From the NCBI GenBank assembly GCA_049599895.1, contig JBMYPC010000018.1:1-32289 (forward strand): a DNA stretch of 32,289 bases, given 5' to 3'. The translations under genes were made by a program, and so were the position numbers. Shown here in pieces: positions 1 to 18,746 of this stretch. Positions within the stretch are counted from its first letter, which is position 1, and each line of letters starts with the position of its first letter. Under the pieces are notes generated by a model. That model was not told where the DNA came from. It was given only the letters and a program-made list of their open reading frames with translations, and made no database searches. Origin of the DNA: Bacteriovoracaceae bacterium. GTDB taxonomy: Bacteria > Bdellovibrionota > Bacteriovoracia > Bacteriovoracales > Bacteriovoracaceae.

Positions 1-596
1 TCCTGAACTTGCTTAGCAAGGGCCAAAGGGTTTTCTTTAAAGTTTGGATGATTTAAAATTCTTTGTTGCATTCCTTGAATGACTCGAATGTAATTCTCAT
101 AAAGACTTTGAGAATAATATCCAGAATGAAGTTCAATCGAATCATTAAGAAGTTCTGGTGTGATTGTATTGGGTCTCCCTGTTCTTAAAGTAAGAGCAAA
201 GGTATCACCTCTAATCACTTTAAGCTGCTCTTCGCTGGTTGAGCTTTTTGAAACCACATCAAGAATTCCGTTGAGAAAACGATGCTTTTTACTAAGTTCT
301 ACAAAGTTCGCTGGCTCAGGACTCATTAACTTTTGAAGTTCAGCATCGATGTTAGGATCTCGATCAGCAATATTTTTCTCGGCCGCTTTAATCATTTCCT
401 CAGCCGTTAAGCCTTCATAACTTGGAAGAGAAACTGCCTTAGACGCCCTGATTGAGCTTGAAATAGACGGAAGACAACTTGCCTCATCATCTTCAGCATA
501 AGCTGATTGAAAGACCACAAGAGAACCTACAAGCAAAATAAGTGCTTGTAGGGAGCAAGGAAAATGCAAGAAAATCTTGGGTCTCAATTTTTTCAT
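1..596 (-). CDS. Hypothetical exported protein, 3'-truncated by the window edge
   Basis: Manual translation from ATG at 596 (MKKLRPKIFLHFPCSLQALILLVGSLVVFQSAYA-EDDEASC...) stays open to position 1. Signal-peptide-like N-terminus ending AYA; AAGGA lies upstream. Not in the ORF track. Confidence 0.75.
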   Translation of the reverse strand, partial: MKKLRPKIFLHFPCSLQALILLVGSLVVFQSAYAEDDEASCLPSISSSIRASKAVSLPSYEGLTAEEMIKAAEKNIADRDPNIDAELQKLMSPEPANFVELSKKHRFLNGILDVVSKSSTSEEQLKVIRGDTFALTLRTGRPNTITPELLNDSIELHSGYYSQSLYENYIRVIQGMQQRILNHPNFKENPLALAKQVQ

Positions 597-706
597 GATT
601 CCTTATTTTTATCACGCCTAGGCGTTAAAATATGGAATTCTCTAAAAATTACATGCCTGCTTAGTTGCTGAACGGCTGATCAGAAGAAGGTTTTGGGGAA
701 TAATAT

Positions 707-733
707 AAAAAGCCTGAAGAAACTTCAGGCTTT
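707..733 (-). terminator. Intrinsic terminator of the oxidase operon
   Basis: AGCCTGAAG (711-719), 3-nt loop, CTTCAGGCT (723-731), followed by a T run on the minus strand, about 35 nt after the last operon gene. Confidence 0.8.
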
Positions 734-767
734 ATCGAAACTGTCTAAAAATTTGATAATTTTTAAA

Positions 768-935
768 TCACTTACCGTGTCGTTTATCGTCTTTAATGTA
801 GATAAAAACCTTTAAGATCACGAAAACAACAATAAGGAAAATCGGAATTCCCCAATAAGGCATTGAAAACTGATCAGGGATAGGTTGTTTTAATGGGGCT
901 GCTGCTGCGACTGATTCTTTAACTTCGTTATTCAT
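768..935 (-). CDS. 55-aa single-pass membrane protein, last gene of the oxidase operon
   Basis: Manual translation MNNEVKESVAAAAPLKQPIPDQFSMPYWGIPIFLIVVFVILKVFIYIKDDKRHGK*. Strong SD (GGAGGGG) right after the subunit IV stop, one hydrophobic helix, followed by the terminator. Confidence 0.8.
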   Translation of the reverse strand: MNNEVKESVAAAAPLKQPIPDQFSMPYWGIPIFLIVVFVILKVFIYIKDDKRHGK

Positions 936-945
936 TTTCCCCTCC

Positions 946-1233
946 CTATCTGTACATTGACTCTAAAATAACGACGATTGCATAGATCCCAGCCGAGATT
1001 GGAATTGCCGCAATGAACTTGAGCCACTTTGTTTCATGATTTAAGTGCATATAAAAATAAGCAACAACAAAAGCTTTCCCAATAGCGAGAAAAGTAAGTG
1101 AACTTGCTTTCATCGCATAGGAGAGGTTTTCTGTTTCTGGAATCCAAATTTCAATAATAGTTAAGACACAAAGAGCTGCAAAAACAAGCCAATACTCTAA
1201 GTGCTGCTTTTTTCTCGATAGTTCTTTTCCCAT
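946..1233 (-). CDS. ctaF: Cytochrome c oxidase subunit IV family protein
   Basis: Three TM helices, KAFVVAYFYMHL motif typical of prokaryotic subunit IV, operon context. Confidence 0.88.
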   Translation of the reverse strand: MGKELSRKKQHLEYWLVFAALCVLTIIEIWIPETENLSYAMKASSLTFLAIGKAFVVAYFYMHLNHETKWLKFIAAIPISAGIYAIVVILESMYR

Positions 1234-1265: not shown

Positions 1266-1922
1266 TTAACTTTTACTAAATGCCGCATTAATAAGAAGCC
1301 CTACATCGATCATCATTCGATCAACAGACTCCTTATCATGTCCGTAAAAAGCTCTCACATTTCCTTTTTTATCTACTAAAAACATTCTATCTGAATAAAC
1401 ATTTTGTCCCTGTTCATTAATCATAAAAGGGACCTTTAAAGAGTTATTGGCAAACTCTTTAAGCTTCGCTCTCTCGGCAGTGACAAACTTCCATACGAAA
1501 GGATTGGAGTCATAAGATCGAGAGACATTATAAAGATCTTTGAGACTTACTTTTTCAGGGGCAGCATTAAGAGAAACGATGGCCATATTAGTTCCAAGCC
1601 CACGAACTCGTTTTTGAATTTTTTGAAGACCCCTAAGTTTTCCATCACATTCTGCTGTCTTACATGAAAAGTCATGAAAATGAATGATCGAAAGACGATC
1701 GTTTAAAATCGCATTATTAATCTTTTCATTTTGTTCTGTTTGGAACTCAAAAGACTGAAGCTTAAAAAGAATCGGCAACTCTGCAGGCAGACTTCTATTT
1801 AACGATCGATAAATAGGGTAAGTGAAAACAATACTTAAAAAGATAATCCAAACCAAAGGCTTAGTGGCAAGCTTTTCAATTATTGAATCATCTCTTTTAA
1901 AAGCAACACCTTTAGTGGCCAT
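1266..1922 (-). CDS. SCO/SenC-like thioredoxin-fold protein with an atypical Cu site
   Basis: N-terminal TM anchor; FSCKTAEC at the CxxxC position; VSLNAAPEK, WKFVTA and MFLVDKKGNVRAFY match SCO segments. Confidence 0.75.
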   Translation of the reverse strand: MATKGVAFKRDDSIIEKLATKPLVWIIFLSIVFTYPIYRSLNRSLPAELPILFKLQSFEFQTEQNEKINNAILNDRLSIIHFHDFSCKTAECDGKLRGLQKIQKRVRGLGTNMAIVSLNAAPEKVSLKDLYNVSRSYDSNPFVWKFVTAERAKLKEFANNSLKVPFMINEQGQNVYSDRMFLVDKKGNVRAFYGHDKESVDRMMIDVGLLINAAFSKS

Positions 1923-1936: not shown

Positions 1937-2824
1937 CTATTGATTAACAAGTTTTCCTAAAAGTTCTTTACGTTTCTTTTGGTCATCTTTTGTTTCCATA
2001 AGATCTTTAACGTAATAAGAAACAGCCCAAATTTCTTGATCTGAGAGAGTGTCCTTCCAACTTGGCATTGCTGTACCACCAACACCTGCTAAGAGTCTCA
2101 CATAGATCTCTGGAACAGTTCTAGCTGATCGAACATGGTGCCAAGTAAAATCTGGCGGGATATTAAGATATCCATGCTCAGTTTCTTGAAGCTTAATCTT
2201 ATAGAGATCATCTTCAAACTCTTCAATTGGCTCGTCATTGTATTTCATTGAATATTTATTTAGCTCATCTTTCGTTACATAGGCCCTGTGACAAGTCTGA
2301 CACTGAGCAACTGCGTGATAAACCTCTTTACCAAGTTCAATGGCTGCCGTTTTATGGGCCATACCAAATGGATCCTTCCCTGCAACAAGCTTCTCACCAA
2401 GAGTCTTATCCTTTCCTTCCCAGGCATCTGGAGCAAAAGTTTTAATGTATTGAACGACTGCGTGTTTCGCACCATCAGTCATATCCCAAGGAAGCATCGC
2501 TGATCCGTGTAGACCTTCATCGAGTATTTTAAAAAAGTCATCATCATGCGGAAGTTCTCCCGCGACAACTCGACCAAATTTATAAATACCAAGCTTTAAG
2601 TTTCTTGGTGGTACCTGCATTCCCTTAGCGGCAACCCCGTTTCCATCACCACTTTCTCCGTGGCATGGCATACAGTATTCCGTATAAATGAGCTTTCCTT
2701 TATTTAAAGTTTTCGCATCAACATAAAGATTTCCAGCGAAATACTTCCCTTCCACGAACTCTTTTTTAGAACAAGAGACCAGGGCCAGTAAGCTCACAAA
2801 GAAGAAGATCCTACTCATTTTCAT
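1937..2824 (-). CDS. Diheme cytochrome c lipoprotein
   Basis: Lipobox LVSC; CMPCH and CQTCH; distal Met motifs GSAMLPW and GTAMPSW. Confidence 0.88.
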   Translation of the reverse strand: MKMSRIFFFVSLLALVSCSKKEFVEGKYFAGNLYVDAKTLNKGKLIYTEYCMPCHGESGDGNGVAAKGMQVPPRNLKLGIYKFGRVVAGELPHDDDFFKILDEGLHGSAMLPWDMTDGAKHAVVQYIKTFAPDAWEGKDKTLGEKLVAGKDPFGMAHKTAAIELGKEVYHAVAQCQTCHRAYVTKDELNKYSMKYNDEPIEEFEDDLYKIKLQETEHGYLNIPPDFTWHHVRSARTVPEIYVRLLAGVGGTAMPSWKDTLSDQEIWAVSYYVKDLMETKDDQKKRKELLGKLVNQ

Positions 2825-2848: not shown

Positions 2849-3424
2849 TCACCAAATAAAAAGAGAGAAGAATAAAATTAACCAAATAACATCTAAAAAG
2901 TGCCAAAACTTTGAAACAAAGCTTACGCGTCCAGCATAGTCTTTTTCTAATCCCCTCTCACCAAGAGCTGGAAAAAGAAAAAAGAGTGCAGCCACCGCGA
3001 AAACAATATGAGCAGCATGAGTCCAAGTCAGGGCATAGAGAACAGATTGAAAAATCCCCTCTCCTGCAACATAACCTTTGGCCTCAAGATCAAACCAAAA
3101 ATAGGTTTGAACTGCCATAAAAGCGGTCCCAAGAACAATCGTACTCCAAAGCCAAGCTTTGGCAGTTTGTGACTGCCTTTGATCGCAACATTTCTTCAAA
3201 GTAAAACTACTTAAAAGAATGATAAACGTACTCAATAGAGGAAGAGTCAAAGACACTCTCTCTAATCCCATTGGTGGCCAAGCCTCGCTTGTGAGACGAA
3301 AAGCCACATAGCCAAACATCATCGTCGCAAAAAGCATCGAAAAAGAAAGAAGCACAACGATTTCACTCACTGAGCGTCCTACTTCCTTTTGCTTTGAGAG
3401 AATCTGTTGTTCAGCTAATTCCAA
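2849..3424 (-). CDS. ctaE: Cytochrome c oxidase subunit III (short 5-TM form, copy 1)
   Basis: LTWTHAAHI and FWHFLDVIW motifs; TTG start directly after subunit I. Confidence 0.88.
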   Translation of the reverse strand: MELAEQQILSKQKEVGRSVSEIVVLLSFSMLFATMMFGYVAFRLTSEAWPPMGLERVSLTLPLLSTFIILLSSFTLKKCCDQRQSQTAKAWLWSTIVLGTAFMAVQTYFWFDLEAKGYVAGEGIFQSVLYALTWTHAAHIVFAVAALFFLFPALGERGLEKDYAGRVSFVSKFWHFLDVIWLILFFSLFIW

Positions 3425-3428: not shown

Positions 3429-5162
3429 TTAAGCTCCCGCTAATTCTTCAGTTTGATACTGATAATCTTTTCCCTCCTCAAGAGCTGGGTTTCCATACTC
3501 ATGCGGTCCACACTTAACAACTGGAATTTTATCGAAGTTGTGAACAGGAGCCGGTGAAGGAATAGTCCATTCAAGTGTTCCCACTTCCCAAGGATTTGCA
3601 CTTGCTTTTTCTTTCTTAAAGAAAACTGCGTAGCAAAAGTTCCAAACAAAAATGATCTGCGCTAATCCCATTAAAAAAGCTGAATAAGTCACAAAAGTGT
3701 TGATGGGAATGAGTTTTTCAAGGAATTCATAAACAAACGGGTTATAAAGACGTCTGTGCATTCCACCGTAACCCACAATCATCATTCCCATGAAGACACC
3801 ATTAAGACCAAGCATGGTTAGCCAAAAGTGCGCTTTTGCCCAAAACTCGTTCATCATCACACCAAACATCTTTGGCATCCAAAAATAAACGCCGGCAAAT
3901 CCACCAAGAAGAACAGACGCCGCCATTGTGTAATGGAAGTGACCAACAACAAAATAAGTATCGTGAAGGTAAAGGTCAGTTGTCACAGTTCCAAGATAAA
4001 GACCGGTTAAACCACCAAGACCGAAAACGAAAACAACTCCTAAAGAGAAAAGCATAGGAGATGTAAATCTTATTGAACCTCTCCAAATTGTCCCGAGCCA
4101 GTTCGTAAAGAAGATCGCCGAAGGAATCGAGATGGTCATCGTCAGAGTCATAAATGTTTGCGTTAAAAGCGGACTCATCTGAGTCGTAAACATGTGGTGA
4201 CCGTAAACGACTGTTGAAAGAACAGTAATTGCCGTCATCGAAAGAGCTGTTGCTTTTGCCCCAAAGGCTGGCTTTCTTGCAAAGAAAGATAAAAAGTCGG
4301 AAACAACACCCCACGCCGGAAGAATAAGAATATAAACTTCAGGGTGGCCAAAAATCCAAAAAACATGTTGAAAGAGAATCGGATCTCCGGTTCCACTTGT
4401 TGCTGCAGCTCCTGCAAGAAAGAAGTTTGTTCCAAACATTCGATCGAAAATCAGAAGAAGAACACCAGCACCAAGAACTGGAATAAAGATTGCGTTAAGA
4501 ATCGCTGTTAACCACAGTCCCCAAATTGTGAGTGGCATATCAAAGTATCCCATCCCTGGAGCTCGAAGAACGATAATCGTTGTAATGTAATTAACCGCAC
4601 CAAGGGTTGAAGAAACACCTAATATAAAGATGGCCCAACACCAAAGGGTTTGACCTGCACCAGGAGAACCTATCAGCGTCGAAAGGGTGGGGTAAGAGGT
4701 CCATCCCCCGGCGGCGGCTCCAAGTGGTGAAAAAATTGAAATAAGAACAAGAGCACCAGATAAAAAAGCAAACCAAAAGGAAAGCATATTCATTAAAGGT
4801 GACCACATATCCCGAGCGCCAATCATAAGCGGTATGCAGAAGTTTCCGAACGCTCCAATAAGTATCGGAGTAATGGCATAGAAGATCATGATCGTTCCGT
4901 GCATAGTAAATAACATGGCATAAGTATCAGGAGGAATGACACCACCAGATGTTGGAAAGAAGAGCTTTCCAATAAGTGGAAATGGTTGTCCTGGAAAAGC
5001 AAGAGTCCAACGAATCATTAAGGCCATGATTCCGCCAACTCCTAAAAAGAAAATTCCGTACCAAAGAAATTGCTTCGCGATGACTTTGTGGTCAAAGCTT
5101 ATAATGTACTTTGATAAAAATGTTTTCGGGGCATCGTGAATATGCTGCTCAAAAAATGCCAT
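3429..5162 (-). CDS. ctaD: Heme-copper oxidase subunit I, A-family (A1 signature)
   Basis: DHKVI, TMHGTIM, FGHPEVY, YGHHMF, LHDTYFVVGHFHY, GMHRR. Confidence 0.97.
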   Translation of the reverse strand: MAFFEQHIHDAPKTFLSKYIISFDHKVIAKQFLWYGIFFLGVGGIMALMIRWTLAFPGQPFPLIGKLFFPTSGGVIPPDTYAMLFTMHGTIMIFYAITPILIGAFGNFCIPLMIGARDMWSPLMNMLSFWFAFLSGALVLISIFSPLGAAAGGWTSYPTLSTLIGSPGAGQTLWCWAIFILGVSSTLGAVNYITTIIVLRAPGMGYFDMPLTIWGLWLTAILNAIFIPVLGAGVLLLIFDRMFGTNFFLAGAAATSGTGDPILFQHVFWIFGHPEVYILILPAWGVVSDFLSFFARKPAFGAKATALSMTAITVLSTVVYGHHMFTTQMSPLLTQTFMTLTMTISIPSAIFFTNWLGTIWRGSIRFTSPMLFSLGVVFVFGLGGLTGLYLGTVTTDLYLHDTYFVVGHFHYTMAASVLLGGFAGVYFWMPKMFGVMMNEFWAKAHFWLTMLGLNGVFMGMMIVGYGGMHRRLYNPFVYEFLEKLIPINTFVTYSAFLMGLAQIIFVWNFCYAVFFKKEKASANPWEVGTLEWTIPSPAPVHNFDKIPVVKCGPHEYGNPALEEGKDYQYQTEELAGA

Positions 5163-5190: not shown

Positions 5191-6087
5191 TTATAATGTT
5201 GTACTTGATAATCGTTCTCGACTCTCTTTACTAAGATTTGGTTGCCATTTCCAACCCCAGTAAAGATCCGGATCTTCTGGATCATTGTCTTCGAAAGCTC
5301 TCTCTTGGGCTTCTTTCATCCAAGCGTTGTAATCAGCTTCGTTCATTGCTGTATACTTGGCCTGCATTCTATAGTGATAAGTCCCGCACATCTCGGCGCA
5401 GGCAAGATCAAAAGTTCCCGTTTTTACAAAATCGATCCACATTCTTGTAATTCTTCCAGGAATCGCATCAACTTTTCTTCTTGTATTTGGAAGATAAAGT
5501 GCATGGATCACATCTTTTGAAATCACTTGGAAAACTACTTTCTTATGAGTGGGAACTTTTAAATCATTAAATGTGATGACATCGTCTTCAGTATTGAAAA
5601 CACCATCTTTTCCAGCGTAACGAAAGTTCCACGCCCACTGTTGCGCCATAACTTCAATTCTTTCAACTGGCTCTTTATCTTCTTCAGGCCAGTTAATAAA
5701 AACTTCTGTGTAATCAATTGATGACTTTGTTGAGATGTATGAATCGATACAAAAGAAAACCGCTGCACCAATCACTGTTGCGATAGTGATGTGAACTTTT
5801 TTATTTCCATAAGTATACTCAGGCTTAGGATGCTTCTTGGCTGAGTAAAGATAAGAAAAACCAAAAAGACCAAGACAAACAAGAGCAAAAAAGAAAATGT
5901 TCATGTAAGTGGTGTAACCAAAAAGCCAATCGATTAAGTGTCCATTAGCTGAGATATCTTCTGGTGGAAGCATTCGGCTCCAAAGACTTCCACTAAATTT
6001 TTCACCTACCTGAGCGGCACCTTCTACCAAAAACCCAGTCATTTTAAACAGAGCCGTGTCCATTATTTGAGATAAATAATTACTCAT
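5191..6087 (-). CDS. ctaC: Cytochrome c oxidase subunit II (CuA, no fused cytochrome c)
   Basis: Two TM helices, AQQWAWNF, DVIH and CAEMCGTYHYRM CuA ligands; no CxxCH. Confidence 0.95.
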   Translation of the reverse strand: MSNYLSQIMDTALFKMTGFLVEGAAQVGEKFSGSLWSRMLPPEDISANGHLIDWLFGYTTYMNIFFFALVCLGLFGFSYLYSAKKHPKPEYTYGNKKVHITIATVIGAAVFFCIDSYISTKSSIDYTEVFINWPEEDKEPVERIEVMAQQWAWNFRYAGKDGVFNTEDDVITFNDLKVPTHKKVVFQVISKDVIHALYLPNTRRKVDAIPGRITRMWIDFVKTGTFDLACAEMCGTYHYRMQAKYTAMNEADYNAWMKEAQERAFEDNDPEDPDLYWGWKWQPNLSKESRERLSSTTL

Positions 6088-6202: not shown

Positions 6203-8083
6203 CTAGTTTTTGAGTAACACCATGGCAAGCATCACGAGAGGCAGATAGATAATTGTTGAGTAAAAGTATCTTCTTGCCCAAAGCTTTAGACCATTCGCAG
6301 TAACAAAGTCTTTTCCCTGAAAGGAAGTGTTAATCAGCATGAGAGCACCTAGAACCAGTGAAACTCCTAAATAGGACTTGCTCACTGAACCAAAAACACT
6401 TGGCAAGGCCGAGAGAACAACCAGGCTAACAGTGCAAAGCAAAATCATCCAATAAGCACCTGAATAGCTCATCTTTTCTGTATAAACTTTAAGACTTGCT
6501 GCACTGTAATCTTCTTTATGAAAGAGTGTGATGGAAAAAAAGTGGGGAACTTGCCAAAAGAACATAAAAGCAAAGAGGCATCCCACTAAAAAATTAAATC
6601 GCTCAGAAACCAAGGAATATCCGAGCATAGGGGGAAGAGCTCCGGGAATTGCTCCAACAAAAAGGTTGAAGGCAGACTTTCTTTTCATCGGAGTATAAAG
6701 AAGAACGTACGTTAAAGAAGCAATTGCCGTTAAAACTGTAACTCTTAAGTTAAACCAAAATAACAGCGCCCCCAAACCAAGAATTGTAAAAAAGATCCCA
6801 CAAAAGAGAACCATTGATCCGGGAAGCCTTCCGGAAGGAAGTGGACGGTCTTTAGTTCGATTCATTTTCCCATCAACATCTTTTTCCATATAGCAATTAA
6901 GAGCCGCCCCACTGACAACTACTAGGCCAATAAGAAAAAGACCCCAAACTGCTTTAAAAAAGTTAATCGTATCGGGAGCCACTAAAAGTCCTACCACAGC
7001 AGAGATGAGAACAAGTCCAGATAGTTTTGGCTTTGTTAGGCTAAAAAGATCAGAGAGAACCGAATGGGTATTCGTGAGTTCAAATTTCTTTTGAACAGCA
7101 CTAAGAAACAGCGCTTGAACCCAAAGAATCATAAGAACTAATGTTGCGATCGAAAGGTGAAGAGTTGTTGGAAGAACCGCTAGGTTTTTCCAAATCATAA
7201 TCAGCCCTAAGGCCACTTGAAATAAAATAAGAAGAGGAACTAAAACGAAAGAAACTCGAAGCCAAAAAAGTTTTTTAAATGCTTCACCAAGAGAGTTCTT
7301 TAAATTTTTATAAATAAAATAGCTAGTCCAAGAAACAAATCCCGTTACAATTACAGCAAAAATTCGATGAAGCCAATGAAGTTGAGATTCAGGTGCAAGA
7401 GGTAAGAGAGTAAGTCCCCATTTTTTCATATCAAAACAAAGAAAAACAGATTGCTCGCCAAGTCCACAAGCAGCCCCTGCTCCAGAATGCCTCATAAAGG
7501 CGCCTAGAAGCATTTGTCCATAAAAGAGAACGAGACTGATAAAAGCCAAATGTGTGGCAATAGGTTTCCAGTTTTCCCTAAAAACTTCTTTTGAACTTTC
7601 AAGTTTTTGCCAAAATGAATCTCGCGCAAAAAGTAAAAAGTTTAAATAAAGTAGGCTTAAAGTGTAGATCATTGAAAGAGCGAGGTGAAAAGTTGAAACC
7701 ATTGTGGGAAGTTTCATATAAACCGTAAGGCCTCCAAGAAGACCTTGAATAATCACAAGAACAAGTACTGCCCAAGAAGTAAAATAAACTTTTCTTCCTA
7801 ACTTTCTTGTAAAGATCACTAAAAGAATTGAAAAGAATCCAACCAAGCTTGCGAGTAGTCGGTGACCATGTTCTATAAAAACATTTCCCACCATTTTGGG
7901 AAAAAATTCACCGTAACAAAGAGGCCAATCAGGACAGGCCAAAGACGATTCAGTATTATGAACAACCCCACCCCAGGTAATAAGTGTGAAAGTTAATAAA
8001 AGTGTAATTCCTCCCAAAACCTGAGAGAGCTTAGCGAATTTTTGATTATTTAAATTTTCTGAATTGGTTTTATCTAATAACAC
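6203..8083 (-). CDS. ctaA-ctaB: Fused heme A synthase (CtaA/COX15) and protoheme IX farnesyltransferase (CtaB/CyoE)
   Basis: N-half has CPDWPLC, IEHGHR, LHWLHR. C-half has LTKPK, EKDVDGKMNRTKDRPLPSG, YTPMKR, GAIPGALPP, WQVPHF. Confidence 0.93.
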   Translation of the reverse strand: MLLDKTNSENLNNQKFAKLSQVLGGITLLLTFTLITWGGVVHNTESSLACPDWPLCYGEFFPKMVGNVFIEHGHRLLASLVGFFSILLVIFTRKLGRKVYFTSWAVLVLVIIQGLLGGLTVYMKLPTMVSTFHLALSMIYTLSLLYLNFLLFARDSFWQKLESSKEVFRENWKPIATHLAFISLVLFYGQMLLGAFMRHSGAGAACGLGEQSVFLCFDMKKWGLTLLPLAPESQLHWLHRIFAVIVTGFVSWTSYFIYKNLKNSLGEAFKKLFWLRVSFVLVPLLILFQVALGLIMIWKNLAVLPTTLHLSIATLVLMILWVQALFLSAVQKKFELTNTHSVLSDLFSLTKPKLSGLVLISAVVGLLVAPDTINFFKAVWGLFLIGLVVVSGAALNCYMEKDVDGKMNRTKDRPLPSGRLPGSMVLFCGIFFTILGLGALLFWFNLRVTVLTAIASLTYVLLYTPMKRKSAFNLFVGAIPGALPPMLGYSLVSERFNFLVGCLFAFMFFWQVPHFFSITLFHKEDYSAASLKVYTEKMSYSGAYWMILLCTVSLVVLSALPSVFGSVSKSYLGVSLVLGALMLINTSFQGKDFVTANGLKLWARRYFYSTIIYLPLVMLAMVLLKN

Positions 8084-8260: not shown

Positions 8261-9343
8261 GTGAAAACTTATTATCGAGATTACCTAGGACTTAACACAT
8301 TGCTAGATAGCCAAAAGCCTATGAGTTTTGACACCGACAATCCGATTCAAGATGAGATGCTCTTTATCATCGTTCATCAAGTTTACGAACTTTGGTTTAA
8401 ACAAATGCTCCATGAGCTAAAACAAATTCAAGAGCTCATGTCAGTCGCTCCTATTCGTGAAAAAGAACTCAATATCGTCTCTTCTAAGTTTCAAAGAATT
8501 AAAGCAATTCAAGGGCTCATGACAGGGCCTCTTGAAATTCTTGAAACTATGACACCAATGGACTTTCTTGAATTCAGAGATCTCATTGTTCCGGCCTCTG
8601 GTTTTCAAAGTGTTCAGTTTCGAGAAATTGAAATTCGCCTCGGCCTTACAGAAGGTTTAAAGTCTCCCGTTGATCGAAAGTTCTTTATGGGAAGAATGGA
8701 CGAGCAAGATCAAAACCATATTCGCTCAATTGGTTCAAACTCATTGTTTCATCTTGTGGAAGGCTGGTTAGAAAGAATGCCATTCGGAAAAATGAAAAAC
8801 TTTAATTTCTGGAAGTCTTATGAAGCGGCTGTTAATAAAATGCTTGATTCAGAAAAAAATATTATCGAAGAAAACCAAGCTGAACTTTCAAGTGAGTTAA
8901 TGGAGACTCAACTTCAAAAACTTAATGAAACTCAAAAACATTTTGAAAGTCTTATGGACGAAGAAAAGTATAAAGCTCTTATTGAAAGTGGAAATAAAAG
9001 ACTTTCCCAGAAGGCCACCCTTAATGCTCTTTTTATTTTACTCTATCGATCTGAACCTCTTCTTCATCAACCCTTTCAAATCCTCACTCACTTAATGGAC
9101 ATCGATGAAAACTTCACTTCATGGAGATATCGCCATTCGATTCTTGCGCAAAGAATGCTTGGAAGAAAGATTGGAACAGGTGGATCGTCTGGTCATGAGT
9201 ACTTAAAAAGAACGGCTGAACAAAATAGAGTTTTTCTCGATATTTTTGATCTTTCTTCGTTTTTAATCCCCAATAGAATGAAACCAACACTGCCTACAGA
9301 GCTAAAAGAGAAGCTCTCCTTTCACTATGAAATTAATCCCTAG
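8261..9343 (+). CDS. kynA: Tryptophan 2,3-dioxygenase (long form)
   Basis: DEMLFIIVHQVYELWFKQ, PASGFQSVQFREIE, WRYRH, GTGGSSG; GTG start. Confidence 0.96.
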   Translation: MKTYYRDYLGLNTLLDSQKPMSFDTDNPIQDEMLFIIVHQVYELWFKQMLHELKQIQELMSVAPIREKELNIVSSKFQRIKAIQGLMTGPLEILETMTPMDFLEFRDLIVPASGFQSVQFREIEIRLGLTEGLKSPVDRKFFMGRMDEQDQNHIRSIGSNSLFHLVEGWLERMPFGKMKNFNFWKSYEAAVNKMLDSEKNIIEENQAELSSELMETQLQKLNETQKHFESLMDEEKYKALIESGNKRLSQKATLNALFILLYRSEPLLHQPFQILTHLMDIDENFTSWRYRHSILAQRMLGRKIGTGGSSGHEYLKRTAEQNRVFLDIFDLSSFLIPNRMKPTLPTELKEKLSFHYEINP

Positions 9344-9437
9344 TTTGTAATTTCAATATCCTACGAGTGTTAACCGACACAAAGGACATGTGTTAGCACC
9401 TTTTACAAAATAAATCGTGTAATTATTTTCAGGTCAA

Positions 9438-9467
9438 TTGAAGCCAATGTGACTCTACCTGTATAAC
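9438..9467 (+). promoter_or_regulatory. Candidate sigma70 promoter of the 307-aa secreted protein
   Basis: TTGAAG (9438-9443), N18, TATAAC (9462-9467); GGAGG SD before ATG 9535. Confidence 0.4.
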
Positions 9468-9534
9468 CTCTCCAACTTTCAACAAACGAATTGGGTTTGA
9501 CCCAAGGGGAACACAAAAAAATCTCGGAGGAATT

Positions 9535-10458
9535 ATGAGAAGAACTTTAGGAACACTCGTTATTTCTGCATCTTTAGCATTTTCAAGCGTTGCTTCTGCA
9601 AGCGCAACATCTGCTTTAGTTGACATTGAAAATAACCTTAAAGAAGTAATTGTAGAAACTGGACAACTAGCATCTAATGCTATTCCAACTCTTAAGGGTT
9701 CAGCTTCTAACAGAGCTATCGTAGGAACCGCTCAAACTGTAACAGGTACTTTATCACTTGACGGTGAAAGAGTTGCTGACGGACTTGAGAACATTGGTGA
9801 AGCTGCCGTTAAGCTTGCTTCTGATACTGGATCTCTTGCAGTTGCAACTGTTCAAGCTGGATACGACAGCTTAAATATTCTTGACGAAAACACTGCTGCT
9901 CACGAGTTTATCGTTTCAGTTGGTAACAAGCTTGACGACGCTATCGACCAAGTTGATGACGAAGGTTTTAACTTCGTCGCTAACAAGCTTGCTGAAATCA
10001 CAGACAATGATCCAGTTGTTGGATTTGTTCTTGTTTCTTCTTTAAAGTCTATGGGTGACGCTTCTGAAGCAGGTTTCGACGCTGCTGGACAGATCTTCAT
10101 CAAGTCTCCATTTTCTCTTGCTAAGTCTGCTTACATGAACCTTTTCTCTTTTGCTAAAGGATTCACAGACGGATCATACGACAGCCCAAAAGACGTTCTT
10201 AAGGCAGTTGCTCAAGCTGGATTCAACATCATCCAAACAGCTGCTCAAGAAATCGTTAACATCATTTGGTCAGCTGTTCGATTTGCTAAAGAAGCTGCTG
10301 AAATCGTAATCGGTGAAAAAGGTGCGAAACTTTTCGCTATCTTAGAATTCATCGGTAACGGAGTTGAAGCGACTGTAGAAGGTGCTGGTAACCTACTTGA
10401 TAAAATCTTCAGTGGTAAGGGTACTCAAAAGAAATTTAAGAACCCAAGACTTAGATAA
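9535..10458 (+). CDS. Secreted Ala-rich helical hypothetical protein
   Basis: Signal peptide (MRRTLGTLVISASLAFSSVASA), GGAGG SD, own terminator; no recognised domain. Confidence 0.8.
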   Translation: MRRTLGTLVISASLAFSSVASASATSALVDIENNLKEVIVETGQLASNAIPTLKGSASNRAIVGTAQTVTGTLSLDGERVADGLENIGEAAVKLASDTGSLAVATVQAGYDSLNILDENTAAHEFIVSVGNKLDDAIDQVDDEGFNFVANKLAEITDNDPVVGFVLVSSLKSMGDASEAGFDAAGQIFIKSPFSLAKSAYMNLFSFAKGFTDGSYDSPKDVLKAVAQAGFNIIQTAAQEIVNIIWSAVRFAKEAAEIVIGEKGAKLFAILEFIGNGVEATVEGAGNLLDKIFSGKGTQKKFKNPRLR

Positions 10459-10489
10459 TTCATAATCTAAACTGAATTTCTTTATAATG

Positions 10490-10517
10490 AGGCCACCTAG
10501 AAATAGGTGGCCTTTTT
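10490..10517 (+). terminator. Intrinsic terminator
   Basis: AGGCCACCTA-GAAA-TAGGTGGCCT followed by TTTT. Confidence 0.9.
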
Positions 10518-10606
10518 AGTTTCTGCCGAAAAAATTTCCCCCCTGATTCACTCAACAAAATTCGATACGCTAGATGCCAAGATTGTCTTCAAACAAAGGA
10601 AAACCT

Positions 10607-10858
10607 ATGAAATGGTCAGCACTTGTTAATGTTAAATGGTCAAAAACAACTCCAGAAACAAAAGACTGGACATGGTTAAAAGATTGGAAAGAAGTTCAAA
10701 CCGCTTGGTCAACAATGGGACCGTGGGATGCGACGATTTGGGTCGATCTTGATAATCCAGGTGAAGTTGAAAGTTTTGTTCAAGAGAAACTTTGGTCTAA
10801 AGATTGGGTTGCGAAGACGGAGACTCATTGGGTGAAACAGGTCTGGAACGCCGCCTAG
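10607..10858 (+). CDS. 83-aa Trp-rich stand-alone Lrp/AsnC ligand-binding (RAM)-like domain
   Basis: ATG 10607 follows AAGGA. VQTAWSTMGPWDATIWV and WVAKTETHWV resemble the AsnC V-x6-G-x-[YW]-D and V-x2-T-x-T patterns. No HTH. Confidence 0.7.
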   Translation: MKWSALVNVKWSKTTPETKDWTWLKDWKEVQTAWSTMGPWDATIWVDLDNPGEVESFVQEKLWSKDWVAKTETHWVKQVWNAA

Positions 10859-10996
10859 CTTATTGGCTTCGAGATAAAATCCGGCCGATGCTTCATAACG
10901 TGCCACTGGCACCTTATGCCGCAGGTCGGTGGGTGAAACAGGTCTGGAACGCCGCCTAGCTTATTGGCTTCGAGATAAAATCCGGCCGATGCTTCA
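10829..10996. repeat. Perfect 67-bp direct repeat (10829-10895 and 10930-10996) with a 34-bp spacer
   Basis: TGGGTGAAACAGGTCTGGAACGCCGCCTAGCTTATTGGCTTCGAGATAAAATCCGGCCGATGCTTCA occurs twice, period 101. Confidence 0.97.
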
Positions 10997-10999
10997 ACC

Positions 11000-11044
11000 G
11001 GAGTGCATAAAAAGTTGCCGTTTCCGGCAAGTTTTTGTGCATCC
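11000..11044. repeat. Long imperfect inverted repeat; REP-like hairpin or bidirectional terminator between convergent genes
   Basis: TGCATAAAAAGTTGCCG-TTTC-CGGCAAGTTTTTGTGCA (15 of 17 Watson-Crick pairs), extended by GGA/TCC. Confidence 0.8.
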
Positions 11045-11064
11045 AGCGGAAGCCTTGATTGGTT

Positions 11065-11544
11065 TTATTTCAAAAACTCACAAGAAACTTTCTTATAAGT
11101 CTGAGTCCAGGGATCATAGAGATCCTGGACTTTTTCTCCATCAGTTAAAAAACTAAAATCGGGAATGTTCTCCCAAGTGTCGTAACAGCTTAGATAACTT
11201 ACGACCTGATTCAATGAGAGAAATTCTTTTTTGCACTTCTTAGCTTTGACATAAAGCTTTTTTGTCTCTTTGATTCGATCTGACTTTGAAATATCAATTT
11301 TTTCATTTTTCTTAAATTCAGTTTTGTTGAGGTTGTCATCATAAGCGTAAGTATTCTTAGGTCTGTAAACTGATTTAAGGTCTATTACGAGTTCACACTG
11401 AAAGGGTTTTGTATTTTTATTAAGCTTTTGCGAGAGAACTTTAAATTTCAGACAATAGGCTGCTGGGTTATGGGGAAAATTACAAAGTCCCCAAACATTG
11501 AAGCTTATCAGAGTTAAAAATAAGATAAATAGTTTTTTCACCAT
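11065..11544 (-). CDS. Secreted Lys-rich, Cys-containing hypothetical protein
   Basis: Signal peptide MVKKLFILFLTLISFNVWG; six Cys; starts 1 nt after the kmo stop. Confidence 0.7.
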   Translation of the reverse strand: MVKKLFILFLTLISFNVWGLCNFPHNPAAYCLKFKVLSQKLNKNTKPFQCELVIDLKSVYRPKNTYAYDDNLNKTEFKKNEKIDISKSDRIKETKKLYVKAKKCKKEFLSLNQVVSYLSCYDTWENIPDFSFLTDGEKVQDLYDPWTQTYKKVSCEFLK

Positions 11545-11545
11545 A

Positions 11546-12880
11546 TCAGAGAATATTGATCAATCTCTCAGCGTAATCAAAATCGATTTCGCTTAAATCT
11601 CTTTTATTATCGCATAATTTCTGAAGGATATGTTCTTGTTTTTTACCTTCGTTCTGGGCCTCGACATAGGGAACCAGAGTTTGGGTAACGAGGTAATATC
11701 GTGGCTGAAAGCTCTCCTTAAAACGATTGGCAAGAACCTTTTCCACTTCTTTTTTAAAAAGAAATTTCTCATTGGCCACTCGAGTTTGCATCTCAATAAA
11801 GTTATCTAAGGCCATATCAGCAATGGCATCGGCATTAGGTTTTCTTCTTTCATAAAACTTTTGAAGTAAAACTGAGATATCTTCACTCCAGTCAAAGTCT
11901 GACAAAAGATCATTTAAGATGAAGCAGTCTTCAAATCCTGCATTACAACCCTGTCCAAAAAATGGTACGATCGCGTGAGCAGCATCCCCTATTAAGGTAT
12001 AGCGATCAAAATTCCAGGGAGTTGACCAAACCGTTCCTAGTTTTCCAACAGGATGAGTTTCAAATTCTTCTTCAAGATTAGGAAGCTTAGGTAAAATATC
12101 TGAATAGTATTTTTCAAAATACTTTTTCGCTGTTCGGTGACTTTCAAGATCATCAAAGCTTTCTTTTCCAGCATGGGGAAGATAAAGAGTCAGGGTAAAA
12201 CTTTTATCGACGTTGGGAAGGGCCATAAGAAAATGATGTCCTCTGGGCCAAAGATGAAGTTTGTCTCCTTCAATCTCAAACTCTCCACTCTGATCAGGTG
12301 AAAGAGAAAGCTCCTTATAACCCGAAGAAATAAATTTTACCGTTTCTTTAATTTGCCCTCGCTCAACCAGATGATGTCTTAGAGTTGAACCAGCTCCATC
12401 AGCACCGATAAATAAATCATAGTCTTCTTCAGTAAAAGAATTGAATTTGGCCCGATGGTGAGTGAAGTCAATGTGCTGAAGAACTGCTTCATAACGGATT
12501 TCAACCCCCGCGTTTTCAGCTTCTTGAATGAGAAAACGGTTCAAATGATTCCGATTGACCGAGTAATTGCACTCGTTTCCAGTTGGCCCATAAGACTGGA
12601 AAGTACATTCCCCTTCAATTGAGTGAACCATTCTTCCATAAACAGGAGTCACAATTTCTTTAACTTTTCCCCAAAGAGAAAGCTCTTTTAAAGCATGAAC
12701 ACCTCTTGAAGTTAAAACAAGATTAATTGATCTCCCATCGTCAAACTCATTACTTTCAGGACTTTTTCTTTTTTCAACAAGAATGGTTTGAAACCCAAGT
12801 TTTCGACAATAAATCGCCTGCAAGGTCCCAACCAGCCCTGCTCCAACAATAAGAATTTTTTTAGATTGATTTTTATTCAA
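11546..12880 (-). CDS. kmo: Kynurenine 3-monooxygenase
   Basis: GAGLVG, GRSINLVL, GADGAGS, LHLWPRG, LIGDAAHAIVPFFGQGCNAGFED, MALDNFIEM. Probable start is the TTG at 12880 overlapping the kynU end; the ORF track start at 12922 lies further inside kynU. Confidence 0.94.
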   Translation of the reverse strand: MNKNQSKKILIVGAGLVGTLQAIYCRKLGFQTILVEKRKSPESNEFDDGRSINLVLTSRGVHALKELSLWGKVKEIVTPVYGRMVHSIEGECTFQSYGPTGNECNYSVNRNHLNRFLIQEAENAGVEIRYEAVLQHIDFTHHRAKFNSFTEEDYDLFIGADGAGSTLRHHLVERGQIKETVKFISSGYKELSLSPDQSGEFEIEGDKLHLWPRGHHFLMALPNVDKSFTLTLYLPHAGKESFDDLESHRTAKKYFEKYYSDILPKLPNLEEEFETHPVGKLGTVWSTPWNFDRYTLIGDAAHAIVPFFGQGCNAGFEDCFILNDLLSDFDWSEDISVLLQKFYERRKPNADAIADMALDNFIEMQTRVANEKFLFKKEVEKVLANRFKESFQPRYYLVTQTLVPYVEAQNEGKKQEHILQKLCDNKRDLSEIDFDYAERLINIL

Positions 12881-14141
12881 CAGTCTTTCCCAATTCATCA
12901 ACAAGATGGAAAACATCTTCATAATTATTATAAATAGGAACAGGAGTAAATCTTAAGATATTAGGCTCTCTAAAATCGGCAATAATTTGTTTTTCAACAA
13001 GTTTTTTATAAAGTTTTTTCCCATCTCCTGAATAAAGAACACTCAGCATTGATCCTCGAGTTTGTTCTTCTTCGCAAAACTTCGGAGTGACAACTTTTAT
13101 TTTCCCCTGACACTTATGAGTAAGACCAAGTTCAAGGTATGAAGTCAGTTTATCACCACGAGTTCTTAGATTTTGGATTCCCGCTTTTGTATAAAGTTCA
13201 AGGCTTCCTCTTAATGAAGCTAAAAGAATTGTTGGAGCATTACTTAATTGCCAAGCTTCTGCTGTTGGAATTGGTTCAAAAACATCCTTCATAAGAAATC
13301 GATTCTTCTTATCTGTTCCCCACCAACCTTCAAAACGAGGAATACTTGGGTCATGGTGGTGTTTTTCATTCACAAAAACAAAAGAGATATTCCCTGGACC
13401 AGAATTAAGATATTTATAAGAACAACAAACAGCAAAGTCCACGTTGTCTTTTGAAAGATCAAGAACCAAGTTCCCCGCTCCATGCGCAAGGTTCAGACCA
13501 AAGAGTGCTCCAATTTCATGAGTCTTTTCCGAGTATCTTTTAATAGAAAAGGCCTGTCCTGAAAGGTAGTTACAATTTCCAAGAAGAACCAGAGCAATCT
13601 CATCTTTATTGTCTTCAAGAAAATCAAAACATTCTTTTTCATCATGGGTCCATCCATCTTCTGAAAAAGGAAGAATAAGAAGGTCTTCTTCAGGATTCAA
13701 ACCATGAAATCGAAGCTGAGATTTCACAGCATAAACATCGGAAGGAAAGCAATTCCCTTCAATCACAATCTTTCTTCTTTTCCCTTCGGGTCTAAAAAAA
13801 GAAACGAGCATTAAATGAAGATTTACAGTCAGAGTATTCATCGCCACAACTTCTGATTCTTTCGCTCCAAGAAGATGACTAATATCACTGGCTAAAAGTT
13901 CATGATAAGGAACCCAGGGCTCTTTTGGCACAAAGTGGCCTTCGACAGCATAATGCTTCCACTTTTCGAGCTCTTCATTGATGTATTCCACTGACTTTTT
14001 AGGCCTTAGCCCCAGTGAGTGTCCTGCAAAATAAAGGGAGGCTTCAGAAAAGTCGAACTCTGAGCGAAAGCTTGAAAGAGGGTCCTTTTGGTCCAATTCC
14101 TTAGCATTTTCTAATGTAAAGTCTGATTCTGTAAAACTCAT
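12873..14141 (-). CDS. kynU: Kynureninase (PLP-dependent)
   Basis: YFAGHSLGL, MNTLTVNLHL, FPSDVYA, AHGAGN, CSYKYLNSGPG, GWWG, WQLSN. Confidence 0.96.
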   Translation of the reverse strand: MSFTESDFTLENAKELDQKDPLSSFRSEFDFSEASLYFAGHSLGLRPKKSVEYINEELEKWKHYAVEGHFVPKEPWVPYHELLASDISHLLGAKESEVVAMNTLTVNLHLMLVSFFRPEGKRRKIVIEGNCFPSDVYAVKSQLRFHGLNPEEDLLILPFSEDGWTHDEKECFDFLEDNKDEIALVLLGNCNYLSGQAFSIKRYSEKTHEIGALFGLNLAHGAGNLVLDLSKDNVDFAVCCSYKYLNSGPGNISFVFVNEKHHHDPSIPRFEGWWGTDKKNRFLMKDVFEPIPTAEAWQLSNAPTILLASLRGSLELYTKAGIQNLRTRGDKLTSYLELGLTHKCQGKIKVVTPKFCEEEQTRGSMLSVLYSGDGKKLYKKLVEKQIIADFREPNILRFTPVPIYNNYEDVFHLVDELGKTVE

Positions 14142-14674
14142 TATCTAAACCTTTTGATGAAGTCCTTATAAACATCTTCTCTTCTCTCACCTTGACACCA
14201 TCTTTTAACAGAGGATCGATTAAATGGTTGAGATTTTGCAATTAGAACGGCTTGATCCATCCCTTCGCGGTCTTTGAAATAAATATAACTCGCAAGCCGA
14301 TCTTTAATGCTATCAGTAGGAGAAAGAATTTTTATTATACTCCCATCAACCATCTCTTCTCTAGGTCTAATGTCATAATCTTCCCCAATTCCGAGTGGTC
14401 CAGATGGAAACTCTACAAAAAGATGTGCGCAATGAGGATGCCTATATTCTTTGCCCTTTTTTAAAAATCCTATTTCTTTCATAACCTCAGGCAATCTTTC
14501 CTTCGATAGGTTTTGAATTACAAAATCCAAATCCCCAGACTCATACGCTCCTTCAGAGTACACAGAAACAACTGCACCACCTACCAACACAGCATCAAAT
14601 CCACTATCAGAAAGATGTTTTCCAACAAATCTCCATAGACCTTCCTCTGTTACAGTGCTGAAATCAATCTTCAT
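14141..14674 (-). CDS. Pol-beta-superfamily nucleotidyltransferase-like protein (AbiEii-like)
   Basis: AVLVGGAVVSVYSEGAYESGDLDFV fits the GG...S-x-D-L-D NTase motif; start overlaps the upstream wHTH stop (ATGA). Confidence 0.65.
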   Translation of the reverse strand: MKIDFSTVTEEGLWRFVGKHLSDSGFDAVLVGGAVVSVYSEGAYESGDLDFVIQNLSKERLPEVMKEIGFLKKGKEYRHPHCAHLFVEFPSGPLGIGEDYDIRPREEMVDGSIIKILSPTDSIKDRLASYIYFKDREGMDQAVLIAKSQPFNRSSVKRWCQGERREDVYKDFIKRFR

Positions 14675-15018
14675 GAATCACGACCTATAACTGACTTCCC
14701 TTTCCTTCTTGGTCTTCTTCTGGATGAAAAAATTTCTTCTTTTTCTTTTAGAGGTATTGATTCATAACAAAGCTTTACTAATTCAATAAATGGCTTAGTA
14801 ATCGCACCTTGTTTTTTGTTAAACTGATAAACTCGCGTTCTTCCAGATCGCTTTGAAATAATAACTCCTGCCTCTTCGAACCGATCAAATTGTCTTTGAA
14901 CCTGTCCAAGGGATATTTTAAAATCTTTCGCAACACCAGTAGGATAAGACTCACCATAGTGATAAAGGTGTAAAAATATTTTCTGTGCTGTCTTAGAGCC
15001 TAATATTTTATCGAGCAT
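14671..15018 (-). CDS. Winged helix-turn-helix protein (putative antitoxin or regulator)
   Basis: YPTGVAKDFKISLGQVQRQFDRFEEAGVIISKRSGRTRVYQFN is HTH plus wing; basic tail RRRPRRKGK. Confidence 0.8.
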   Translation of the reverse strand: MLDKILGSKTAQKIFLHLYHYGESYPTGVAKDFKISLGQVQRQFDRFEEAGVIISKRSGRTRVYQFNKKQGAITKPFIELVKLCYESIPLKEKEEIFSSRRRPRRKGKSVIGRDS

Positions 15019-15024
15019 ATTAAA

Positions 15025-15053
15025 ATAATATGAGAAAACCTAGTCAAAATCAA
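15025..15053 (-). promoter_or_regulatory. Candidate leaderless sigma70 promoter of the wHTH-NTase-kynU-kmo unit
   Basis: TTGATT (15053-15048), N17, TATTAT (15030-15025), N6, then ATG (15018); no SD. Confidence 0.6.
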
Positions 15054-15112
15054 CCCCCAAGAGGGGTTTTATAACCCCCTTTAGGGGTGTTACAAATAAC
15101 ACTCTCTTGTAA
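15052..15112. promoter_or_regulatory. Tandem palindromic operator-like sites in the divergent intergenic region
   Basis: AACCCCCAAGAGGGGTT (15052-15068) and AACCCCCTTTAGGGGTG (15073-15089), 21-bp period; TTACAA-N11-TTGTAA (15090-15112). Confidence 0.55.
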
Positions 15113-15132
15113 GTGCAAATCTTAATAAAGAA

Positions 15133-15840: not shown

Positions 15841-16306
15841 ACACAGAGAACTTTTAAAACCACCCGTTGGTAACAAAGTCATTTGGAAAGATTCTGAGTT
15901 CATCGTCATGGTTGTCGGTGGCCCCAACTCTCGAACAGATTATCACGTTAATGAAGGTGAAGAGTTTTTCTATCAACTCAAAGGAACTCTCACATTAAAA
16001 ATTGTCAATAACGAAGGGAAGCTCGAAGACCTGATCTTAAATGGAGGCGATGTTTTCATGCTTCCAGCGAACGTCCCCCATTCTCCACAGAGAGCCCCTG
16101 AATCCATTGGACTAGTAGTGGAAAGAAAAAGAAAGCCTGAAGAAAAAGATGGTCTTCAATGGTATTGCCAAAACTGCGGTCACAAGCTTTATGAAGAGTT
16201 TTTTCATCTCAAAGATATTGAAAATCAATTCCAAGCAGTTTTTGATCGATTTAACTCAAGCAAAGAAAATAGAACCTGTTCCGTTTGTGGAACGACCCAC
16301 CCTTAG
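15803..16306 (+). CDS. nbaC: 3-hydroxyanthranilate 3,4-dioxygenase
   Basis: [39 protein letters not shown], rubredoxin-like CQNC/CSVC; GAGG SD. Confidence 0.96.
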
Positions 16307-18122: not shown

Positions 18123-18746
18123 CTAAAGAAGATAGACAAATGTGAAAACGAGAATCCAAACAAGGTCGACAAAGTGCCAGAAAAGCCCAGCAATTTCGAG
18201 CTGATTGATATCCCCATTATCAAATTCACCTTTAAGGGCCTTCAGGTACATACAAATGAGATAAATCACACCAGTGAGAACGTGAAGTCCGTGAAATCCA
18301 GTAATGGCATAGAATGTTGAAGAAAAGAGGTCATTTCCGTGAGCATATGTCGTAAAAGACATACCAAGGTCACTATAAAGGTGAAGGTATTCATAGACCT
18401 GAATTCCAAGAAAGATTGCCCCACCAATGATTGTCGTGAGTAGCCAATTGAGCATGTTCTTTCTTTCTTTTCTTTTACAAGCATCAATTGCAAAAACCAT
18501 CGAAACAGATGAACAGATCAGAATAAATGTCATGAACCCAGATAGAGCAACACCACCGAGTGCTTCAACCGGAACTGGCCAGCTTGTCGCTGTTGCTCTT
18601 AAGACTGCGTAAGCGAGAAGAAATCCAGAAAATGACATTCCGTCGGTAACAAGAAAGATCCACATTCCAATTTTACCTGGAGTCGCTTTTCCAAATTGCT
18701 CGTCCACGTGATCATAAGGAACGGATTCATGTCCATGTCCACCCAT
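18123..18746 (-). CDS. ctaE: Cytochrome c oxidase subunit III (short form, copy 2)
   Basis: GKIGMWIFLVTD, FYAITGFHGLHV, GLFWHFVDLVWILVFTFVYL. Confidence 0.92.
   Translation of the reverse strand: MGGHGHESVPYDHVDEQFGKATPGKIGMWIFLVTDGMSFSGFLLAYAVLRATATSWPVPVEALGGVALSGFMTFILICSSVSMVFAIDACKRKERKNMLNWLLTTIIGGAIFLGIQVYEYLHLYSDLGMSFTTYAHGNDLFSSTFYAITGFHGLHVLTGVIYLICMYLKALKGEFDNGDINQLEIAGLFWHFVDLVWILVFTFVYLL

Follow-up and report, generated by a model that had tools for sequence, protein, structure and literature searches.

The canonical A1 cytochrome aa3 oxidases of Paracoccus denitrificans (1AR1), Rhodobacter sphaeroides (1M56/2GSM) and bovine mitochondria (1OCC) have two proton channels, namely the D-channel, defined by D132, N121, N139, N207 and E286 (PMC3084760 Table 2), and the K-channel, made up of K362, T359, S299 and Y288 of subunit I and E101 of subunit II. 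Why A-family enzymes need two proton channels, and whether the K-channel serves conduction or charge compensation, is a long-standing open question according to the accessible text of PMC7196763 and PMC13342887. Here we describe a subunit I gene (CoxI/CtaD-like, 577 aa; 3429..5162, minus strand) in a 32,289-nucleotide stretch of Bacteriovoracaceae DNA (contig JBMYPC010000018.1 of assembly GCA_049599895.1; the whole stretch is called the window below), whose product carries phenylalanine at the K-channel lysine position (Phe351 for K362; codon TTC at 4110..4112, minus strand). In model aa3 enzymes, substitution of K362 nearly abolishes turnover. The initial annotation of this gene built on that statement; the accessible literature bears out only that K-channel mutations impair the reductive steps of the cycle and spare the peroxidase reaction.

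The lysine-to-phenylalanine change is already catalogued at the sequence level. In Supplementary Table 3 of Degli Esposti et al. 2021 (PMC8239418), Halobacteriovorax WP_114706215 and Bacteriovorax stolpii WP_102242033 appear with Phe at K354, Ser at T351, Asn at S357 and Asp at E292; both are classed as 'KC-channel' and 'hybrid', alongside dozens of A-family sequences that have no lysine there. In the accessible parts of the same work, Supplementary Table 1 describes an 'Oligoflexia' subclade as 'K-channel: no, KC', Table 1 notes a CtaA-CtaB fusion for Halobacteriovorax, and the study is a sequence survey without assay. The bioRxiv version, in its accessible text, covers iron oxidisers and does not mention Bacteriovoracaceae. 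Murali et al. 2024 (PMC11214002, accessible portion) assign one A-family and one C-family enzyme each to B. stolpii and H. marinus. The novelty implied by the initial annotation was therefore overstated, since the same substitution in the same family stands in a published table. Our literature searches, which left most subscription journals outside their coverage, found no biochemical study of the lysine-less clade, which thus appears to be biochemically uncharacterised.

The window enzyme matches the 'Oligoflexia' A1 COX1 subclade. All ten tabulated subunit I residues (Y277, S288, F351, S348, N354, D289, G301, T305, S308 and S316) equal the Halobacteriovorax row (Y, S, F, S, N, D, G, T, S, S), the host belongs to the Bacteriovoracaceae, and the operon includes a fused CtaA-CtaB gene (6203-8083). 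The published tables differ in giving Ile/Ala at the subunit II entry residue, where our alignment has His99 (72/88 homologues), and in being without S345, Y320, W284, T313, Asp115 of subunit II, a Myxococcota-type branch and genomes in which this is the sole oxidase. Other lysine-less A-family oxidases, from Acidithiobacillus, Acidiferrobacter, Thioclava, Elusimicrobia and archaeal COX1-3, likewise have a hydrophobic residue at K354/K362, keep the D-channel and have lost the subunit II Glu, as far as the accessible record goes. Other lysine-less representatives in our comparison share S345 with the window enzyme; they differ in having separate origins and, in those inspected, in missing the W284-D289-Y320 signature. 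An Acidithiobacillus aa3 oxidase of the lysine-less kind has reportedly been purified as an active O2 reductase; the named Acidithiobacillus sequences are not among the rows of our lysine-less tree.

Apart from the K-channel, subunit I resembles the canonical A1 enzymes closely. It matches PF00115 at E 3.5e-135, contains the A1 motif GHPEVY and retains the six His ligands, and an AlphaFold (AF2) model has a mean pLDDT of 94 and superimposes on aa3 oxidase structures with TM 0.85-0.87; no solved structure of the lysine-less clade was among the PDB entries searched. Residues were numbered by alignment to E. coli CyoB, with the R. sphaeroides sequence itself not aligned residue by residue, and we take the two numberings to coincide at the K-channel and active-site positions used. 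The initial annotation had read a gap-free offset of 11 for the ligand positions, and against CyoB the offset is indeed constant from residue 269 to 471: H273 corresponds to H284 (codon 4346-4344), H322/323 to H333/334, H408/410 to H419/421 (3941/3935), E275 to E286, Y277 to Y288, S288 to S299 and R470/471 to R481/482. At the changed sites F351 stands for K362 (4112-4110), S348 for T359 (4121-4119), Y320 for W331 (4205-4203), S345 for A356 and W284 for F295, so that the replacements of K362, T359 and W331 named in the initial annotation are all recovered; alignment to P. denitrificans also places F351 opposite K354 without a gap. The metal and tyrosine site is complete (H88, H273, H322, H323, H408, H410, E275 and Y277), as are the Mg-site pair H400-D401, the Arg pair R470/R471 and the D-channel (N107, D118, N125, N191 and E275, each invariant in 120/120 close homologues), just as the earlier reading had it. 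From this conserved site a covalent cross-link of Tyr277 can be predicted.

The departures from canonical A1 enzymes, at about 38-43% identity, are K362 to Phe, T359 to Ser, W331 to Tyr, F295 to Trp and A356 to Ser, the loss of the entry Glu, and an Asp in subunit II helix 2. The canonical K-channel positions thus read F351, S348, S288 and Y277 in subunit I and His99 in subunit II, so that subunit I is not a canonical A1 enzyme, although published schemes keep it in the A family; the NCBIfam equivalog for CtaD_CoxA (TIGR02891) scores 539.9 bits, under its cut-off of 670.75. Assignment to the B family is contradicted by the D-channel and by matches to ba3 chains only at E about 1e-6. Nitric oxide reductases (NOR) are defined, in the accessible parts of PMC11214002 and its Dataset S1, by an absent or replaced active-site Tyr, a Glu ligand to FeB or B-family ancestry; the invariant Y277 separates our enzyme from the cNOR, qNOR, eNOR, sNOR, bNOR, nNOR and gNOR types.

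The loss of the lysine is a fixed trait. Among 120 close homologues (81-86% identity) position 351 is Phe in 118, Leu in 2 and Lys in none, and among 80 genome loci it is Phe in 79 (55 TTC and 24 TTT codons) and Leu in one; with Phe or Leu throughout and both Phe codons in use, error is not a credible source, and the relatives with Lys whose existence would have spoken against the initial annotation were looked for and not found in either set. One contig of sequencing run X1, which is possibly the source sample, spans the F351 codon and is identical there. No substitute Lys is conserved at the tabulated positions of helices VI-IX, though helix VII begins on the cytoplasmic side with K303, which is Lys/Arg in 120/120 homologues.

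The enzyme also defines a well-supported clade that reaches beyond its own family. Named homologues are Halobacteriovorax, Bacteriovorax (both at 82-85%) and unclassified Bacteriovoracaceae or Bdellovibrionota, and loci in B. stolpii metagenome-assembled genomes match at 80-81%. In a sample of 301 genomes of the phylum, 74 of them in the window's family, an orthologue (78-87% identity) occurs in 63/74 family genomes and as a single match in 59 of these 63; the remaining family genomes have only other A-family enzymes (4) or no match (7). Another Bdellovibrionota family has an orthologue in 14/14 genomes at 59-66% identity, and the 11 of these 14 that were checked, along with one genome of the same order, all carry W284, D289, Y320, S345, S348 and Phe/Leu351. 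A profile of distant members retrieved 118 further proteins at 46-65% identity, the few named ones being mostly Myxococcota; they have Leu351 in 114, Ala348 in 110, Ser345 in all 118 and the D-channel residues in 112-118. Bacteriovoracaceae, the other family and these Myxococcota-type sequences form one branch (SH-aLRT 100 in a 71-row tree; recovered also in a 160-row FastTree), and relatives share the gene order, in keeping with the suggestion that lysine-less sequences might group together and preserve this operon arrangement. Sister to the branch, with support of 91-95 in quick, midpoint-rooted trees, are Lys-bearing sequences of Bacteroidota type. A single clade of all hydrophobic lysine-less oxidases was rejected (p-AU 0.0008, 33 rows), and at least 4 changes at the Lys position are forced on starred branches of the tree. 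Therefore the lysine changed several times, in a direction that is not fixed without a root.

A few sequences around this clade are worth recording. In G041, G212 and, by score, genus g6, the lysine-less enzyme is missing and a Lys-bearing A2-type oxidase is present instead, which suggests replacement within the family. In another lysine-less group, distinct from the clade, Gln takes the place of the Lys (L133, L137, L142; P0209, P0224, P0239, P0256); this group has Ala345, a degraded D-channel and no subunit II acid, and is an extra oxidase in three family genomes. Plasmid searches returned Lys-bearing Bacteroidota enzymes as best matches. Myxococcota-type subunit II was looked for without success: a metagenome scan yielded two partial loci (L164 and L183), a viral scan contained no member of the lysine-less clade, and the only taxon named among the matches of a subunit II search was Bdellovibrionota (2 rows).

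The genomic distribution of terminal oxidases bears directly on function. Bacteriovoracaceae are aerobic predators. The window's genome has two PF00115 matches, the lysine-less subunit I and a divergent C-family enzyme on contig C5, and no cytochrome bd. In 16 of 121 family genomes the lysine-less enzyme is the only PF00115 match (13 with Phe351, 3 with Leu351); cytochrome bd occurs in 20 family genomes, none of them among these 16. Searching five of the 16 again at E 0.1 gave one sub-cut-off fragment only, and one of the sole-oxidase genomes, G200, is a single contig that is 99% complete. Neither nirK above cut-off nor nirS was found in 5/5 genomes tested; a search for alternative oxidase in 5/5 genomes gave no match, though the control query also matched nowhere, which makes that result uninformative. 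With no other terminal oxidase found in these 16 genomes, the enzyme very probably reduces O2, and is likely to do so as an ordinary cytochrome c oxidase. Conservation, tree topology and the sole-oxidase genomes together support the initial suggestion of an intact enzyme that obtains its chemical protons by another route. The C-family gene on C5 (G000:C5:33842-36659; L002:647-3467) is cbb3-like, scores 230 bits against the CcoN cut-off of 583, and has as neighbours a CcoO-like gene and a gene for a dihaem cytochrome with kinship to that of the window operon.

We compared 250 clade sequences with 89 and 78 Lys-bearing sequences over 366 helix positions for residues that accompany the loss of the lysine. 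Eight positions gain a polar residue clade-wide (171, 223, 305, 313, 320, 345, 412 and 465) and three lose one (32, 351 and 461); four of the eight gains fall in helices VII-VIII (post hoc p about 0.018), and D289, S316, S348 and N354 are polar residues that the clade has kept. In helix VI a signature W284...S288-D289 (4296..4313, minus strand) has W284 and D289 in 250/250 clade sequences. In helix VII, T305, T313, S316 and Y320 (4203..4250, minus strand) form a candidate substitute path on the grounds of clade-wide conservation and of an ideal helical wheel, on which positions 305, 309, 313, 316, 320 and the CuB ligand His323 share one face. T/S305 and S316 are invariant in the clade, and T/S305 (250/250) is found in 0/89 Lys-bearing enzymes. 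In helix VIII, Ser345 (the A356 position; 4128..4130, minus strand) is a gained hydroxyl, Ser in 250/250 clade sequences and Ala/Gly in 88/89 Lys-bearing ones. The pattern extends beyond the clade: among 141 representatives, with 13 rows having other residues at 351 set aside, Ala/Gly345 occurs in 87/88 Lys-bearing enzymes, and Ser/Thr345 in 38/40 with a hydrophobic residue at 351 but in only 1/88 with Lys.

Acidic residues show a similar association. Asp115 of subunit II helix 2 (5743..5745, minus strand), a candidate buried carboxylate, is conserved in 88/88 and 120/120 homologues (overlapping sets); it lies in the outer half of the helix, and alignment to the canonical subunit leaves its register uncertain by some five residues. 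Across 95 subunit I/II pairs, 3 others being skipped for incompleteness, a helix 2 acid is present in 27/27 hydrophobic lysine-less, 0/5 Gln-type and 1/63 Lys-bearing pairs. An acid in helix VIII of subunit I occurs in 19/40 lysine-less and 0/88 Lys-bearing representatives, at 338, 342, 349 or 350 on the S345 face. The K-entry column of subunit II, which is His99 in the window, is Glu in 50/120 homologues from a search built on the other Bdellovibrionota family. In that same family (L114-L124) the CuA-motif Glu has become His in 83/120 homologues, with the remaining CuA ligands kept.

We tentatively favour, at a confidence a little short of even, an O2-reducing oxidase in which the reductive-phase protons would be rerouted along a cytoplasmic helix VII path to S348/S345 and Tyr277, with Asp115 replacing the lysine charge. 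Electrons would pass from a Rieske/cytochrome b/multihaem complex to the dihaem cytochrome c and on to CuA, and the D-channel would carry the pumped and oxidative-phase protons. One or two reductive-phase protons may enter on the cytoplasmic side near D289 (and His99 of subunit II), and would then move by way of T305-T313-S316-Y320 and S348/S345 to the cross-linked Tyr277, much as in the C-family KC path; a buried carboxylate beside S345 could supply the charge tuning that otherwise comes from the lysine. Our own mapping pairs positions 289, 305, 316, 348 and 354 with columns that PMC8239418 Supplementary Table 3 gives for the KC channel of the C family, 316 being the column of the C-family cross-link Tyr, and this rerouted path largely agrees with the published KC label. 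Specifically, the window enzyme is polar at the columns of Vibrio cholerae cbb3 residues Y227, S244, Y255, S287 and N293 (D289, T305, S316, S348 and N354), and it shares with the B-family (ba3) K-analogue a polar residue at ba3 S309. Among the differences from these two systems are the helix VI cross-link Tyr, the D-channel and the CuA-type subunit II, and the positions of ba3 T312, Y244 and Y248, located by spacing from the active-site His, are Phe, Trp and Ser.

Several observations weigh against this proposal. The structure model breaks helix VII at 316-319, which weakens the helical-wheel argument. S308 is Ala in 54/120 close homologues and 101/118 Myxococcota-type sequences, the T359 position is Ala in 110/118 of the latter, and S299 varies there. 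Neither D/E289 (42/89) nor Ser316 (18/89) is confined to the clade, both being common in Lys-bearing enzymes. The co-variation of Ser345 amounts to only 4 independent starred pairs (p 0.125), and the polar residues gained might instead reflect altered packing against helix V (N223, F226, L218). Most other lysine-less clades are missing the helix VII ladder, and thus it is not required for life without the lysine. As to physiology, the 16 sole-oxidase genomes are 92-100% complete, could hide a cbb3 and are not independent as kin, and the window's own genome encodes the divergent C-family oxidase.

The strongest competing explanation, which we consider possible but clearly less probable, is that all eight protons per O2 arrive through the D-channel. 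The part of S345, Asp115 of subunit II, T412 and Y320 would then be confined to adjusting the pKa and potential of Tyr277 and heme a3, which would let the reductive half-cycle proceed with no K path. The D-channel residues are invariant in the 120 close homologues and kept in 112-118 of 118 Myxococcota-type sequences, the Bacteriovoracaceae are without both the Lys and the entry Glu (His in 72/88), and the Myxococcota-type branch has given up T359 too. Most other lysine-less clades, furthermore, keep the D-channel and S345 without the ladder, and the accessible text of the Degli Esposti bioRxiv version interprets enzymes of this sort as having no functional K-channel. This account leaves unexplained why T/S305, close to where helix VII meets the cytoplasmic side, is invariant (250/250 against 0/89). 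The Glu that persists in the entry column of 50/120 homologues from the other-family search also counts against it and, like the His of 72/88, speaks against a clean erasure of the K-channel. A further point against D-channel delivery is that several long-branch members of the clade have lost D-channel residues as well. These W-D-Y sequences (P0122, P0125, P0127, P0139, P0144, P0183, P0191 and P0216) have kept their metal ligands.

A broader conjecture is that the A family has repeatedly swapped the K-channel lysine for Ser and a buried carboxylate (here S345 paired with Asp115 in subunit II, elsewhere a Glu in helix VIII), which would feed the cross-linked Tyr by a route of no characterised oxidase, possibly periplasmic, and that cultured Bacteriovoracaceae respire on it; we regard this as unlikely. 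Periplasmic uptake as a rival to the favoured path, in which reductive-phase protons would reach Tyr277 through Asp115 of subunit II, Tyr/His389 and S345 at a cost of one or two charges per O2, likewise seems unlikely to us. Asp115 does lie in the outer half of its helix, the helix VIII acids of other enzymes (338, 342, 349 or 350) are on the S345 face, E349 (85/118) and E338 (16/118) never occur together in the Myxococcota-type branch, and position 389 is Tyr/His in 132/132 Bdellovibrionota sequences. However, the five-residue ambiguity in the Asp115 register blurs that placement, position 389 is Phe/Leu in 63/118 Myxococcota-type sequences, and the charge loss would be hard to justify in neutrophilic heterotrophs with no other A-family oxidase.

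A specialist for NO or peroxide reduction instead of respiration, which the initial annotation had allowed for, is highly improbable. Oxidases blocked in the K-channel keep the peroxidase partial reaction (PMC10095113, accessible text), and some family genomes encode a qNOR (PMC11214002 Dataset S6, accessible portion); yet the Tyr and three CuB His are kept without a NOR-type Glu ligand, the operon carries heme A synthase, CuA, subunits III/IV and SCO, and the sole-oxidase genomes and the missing nirK and nirS argue the same way. Finally, a sequencing error or a decaying subunit I gene, to which only a private W120-S121 in the window protein (Phe121 in 120/120 homologues) lends any colour, is ruled out by the Phe/Leu of 120 homologues and 80 loci, with two Phe codons and with family frames open and stop-free. 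The W120-S121 pair (4800-4805, minus strand) replaces a small or aliphatic residue followed by Phe in homologues and adjoins the D-channel entry D118; run X1, which may be the source, reads it too.

Although the published table caps the novelty of the substitution itself, the well-supported clade including the other Bdellovibrionota family and the Myxococcota-type sequences, the sole-oxidase genomes and the co-varying residues are added here, and the latter two open a long-standing problem to experiment in genera that are in culture. These neutrophilic genera offer a direct test case for the two-channel question, namely a natural enzyme that has no K-channel lysine, keeps its D-channel intact and in some genomes is the only terminal oxidase found. 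S345, T305, Y320 and, in subunit II, Asp115 are specific candidates for the features that allow the enzyme to do without the lysine.

The oxidase genes lie in one minus-strand run with intergenic gaps of 4-115 bases, in the order fused ctaA-ctaB, subunit II, subunit I, short subunit III, dihaem cytochrome c, SCO-like gene and subunit IV. The fused heme A synthase/heme O synthase (6203..8083) matches PF02628 and PF01040, with TIGR01473 above cut-off, and subunit II (5191..6087; PF00116) has the CuA ligands H195, C230, E232, C234, H238 and M241. Downstream of subunit I are a short subunit III-like protein (2849..3424; PF00510) and a dihaem cytochrome c (1937..2824; two CxxCH motifs, PF13442/PF00034), which is conserved in the operon and, judging from its gene position, is the likely electron donor to the oxidase. 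A divergent SCO-like protein (1266..1922; PF02630 at E 6e-4, under cut-off) is also conserved in the operon, and subunit IV (946..1233; PF03626) completes the run. SCO proteins usually carry a CxxxC motif; the two Cys of the SCO-like protein are spaced CxxxxC.

A second subunit III-like gene (18123..18746, minus strand; PF00510), followed by a DUF420 gene (PF04238, 17385-17936), lies elsewhere in the window, and in many relatives (loci L040-L124) this pair adjoins the oxidase operon. It is preceded on the minus strand (18773-24155) by genes for a Rieske protein, a cytochrome b split in two (260 + 359 aa) and a cytochrome c of 959 aa that carries eight CxxCH motifs, which probably constitute the quinol-oxidising partner complex of the oxidase; a HEAT-repeat protein gene (24286-25173) comes before this cluster, and the second subunit III and DUF420 genes come after it (17385-24155 as a whole). 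A kynurenine-pathway set (8261-16306) separates the oxidase operon from the second subunit III gene and encodes tryptophan dioxygenase, an FAD monooxygenase, kynureninase, a cyclase-family protein and 3-hydroxyanthranilate dioxygenase. Like the window (1-945), the contigs of many relatives break off 3.5-6 kb downstream of subunit I, which hints at a repeat; a structural RNA as the cause was not supported, Rfam having given one tRNA in 1/5 sources. On the plus strand, 26191-30954 encodes a long 1587-aa coiled-coil protein for which only generic coiled-coil models score above cut-off.

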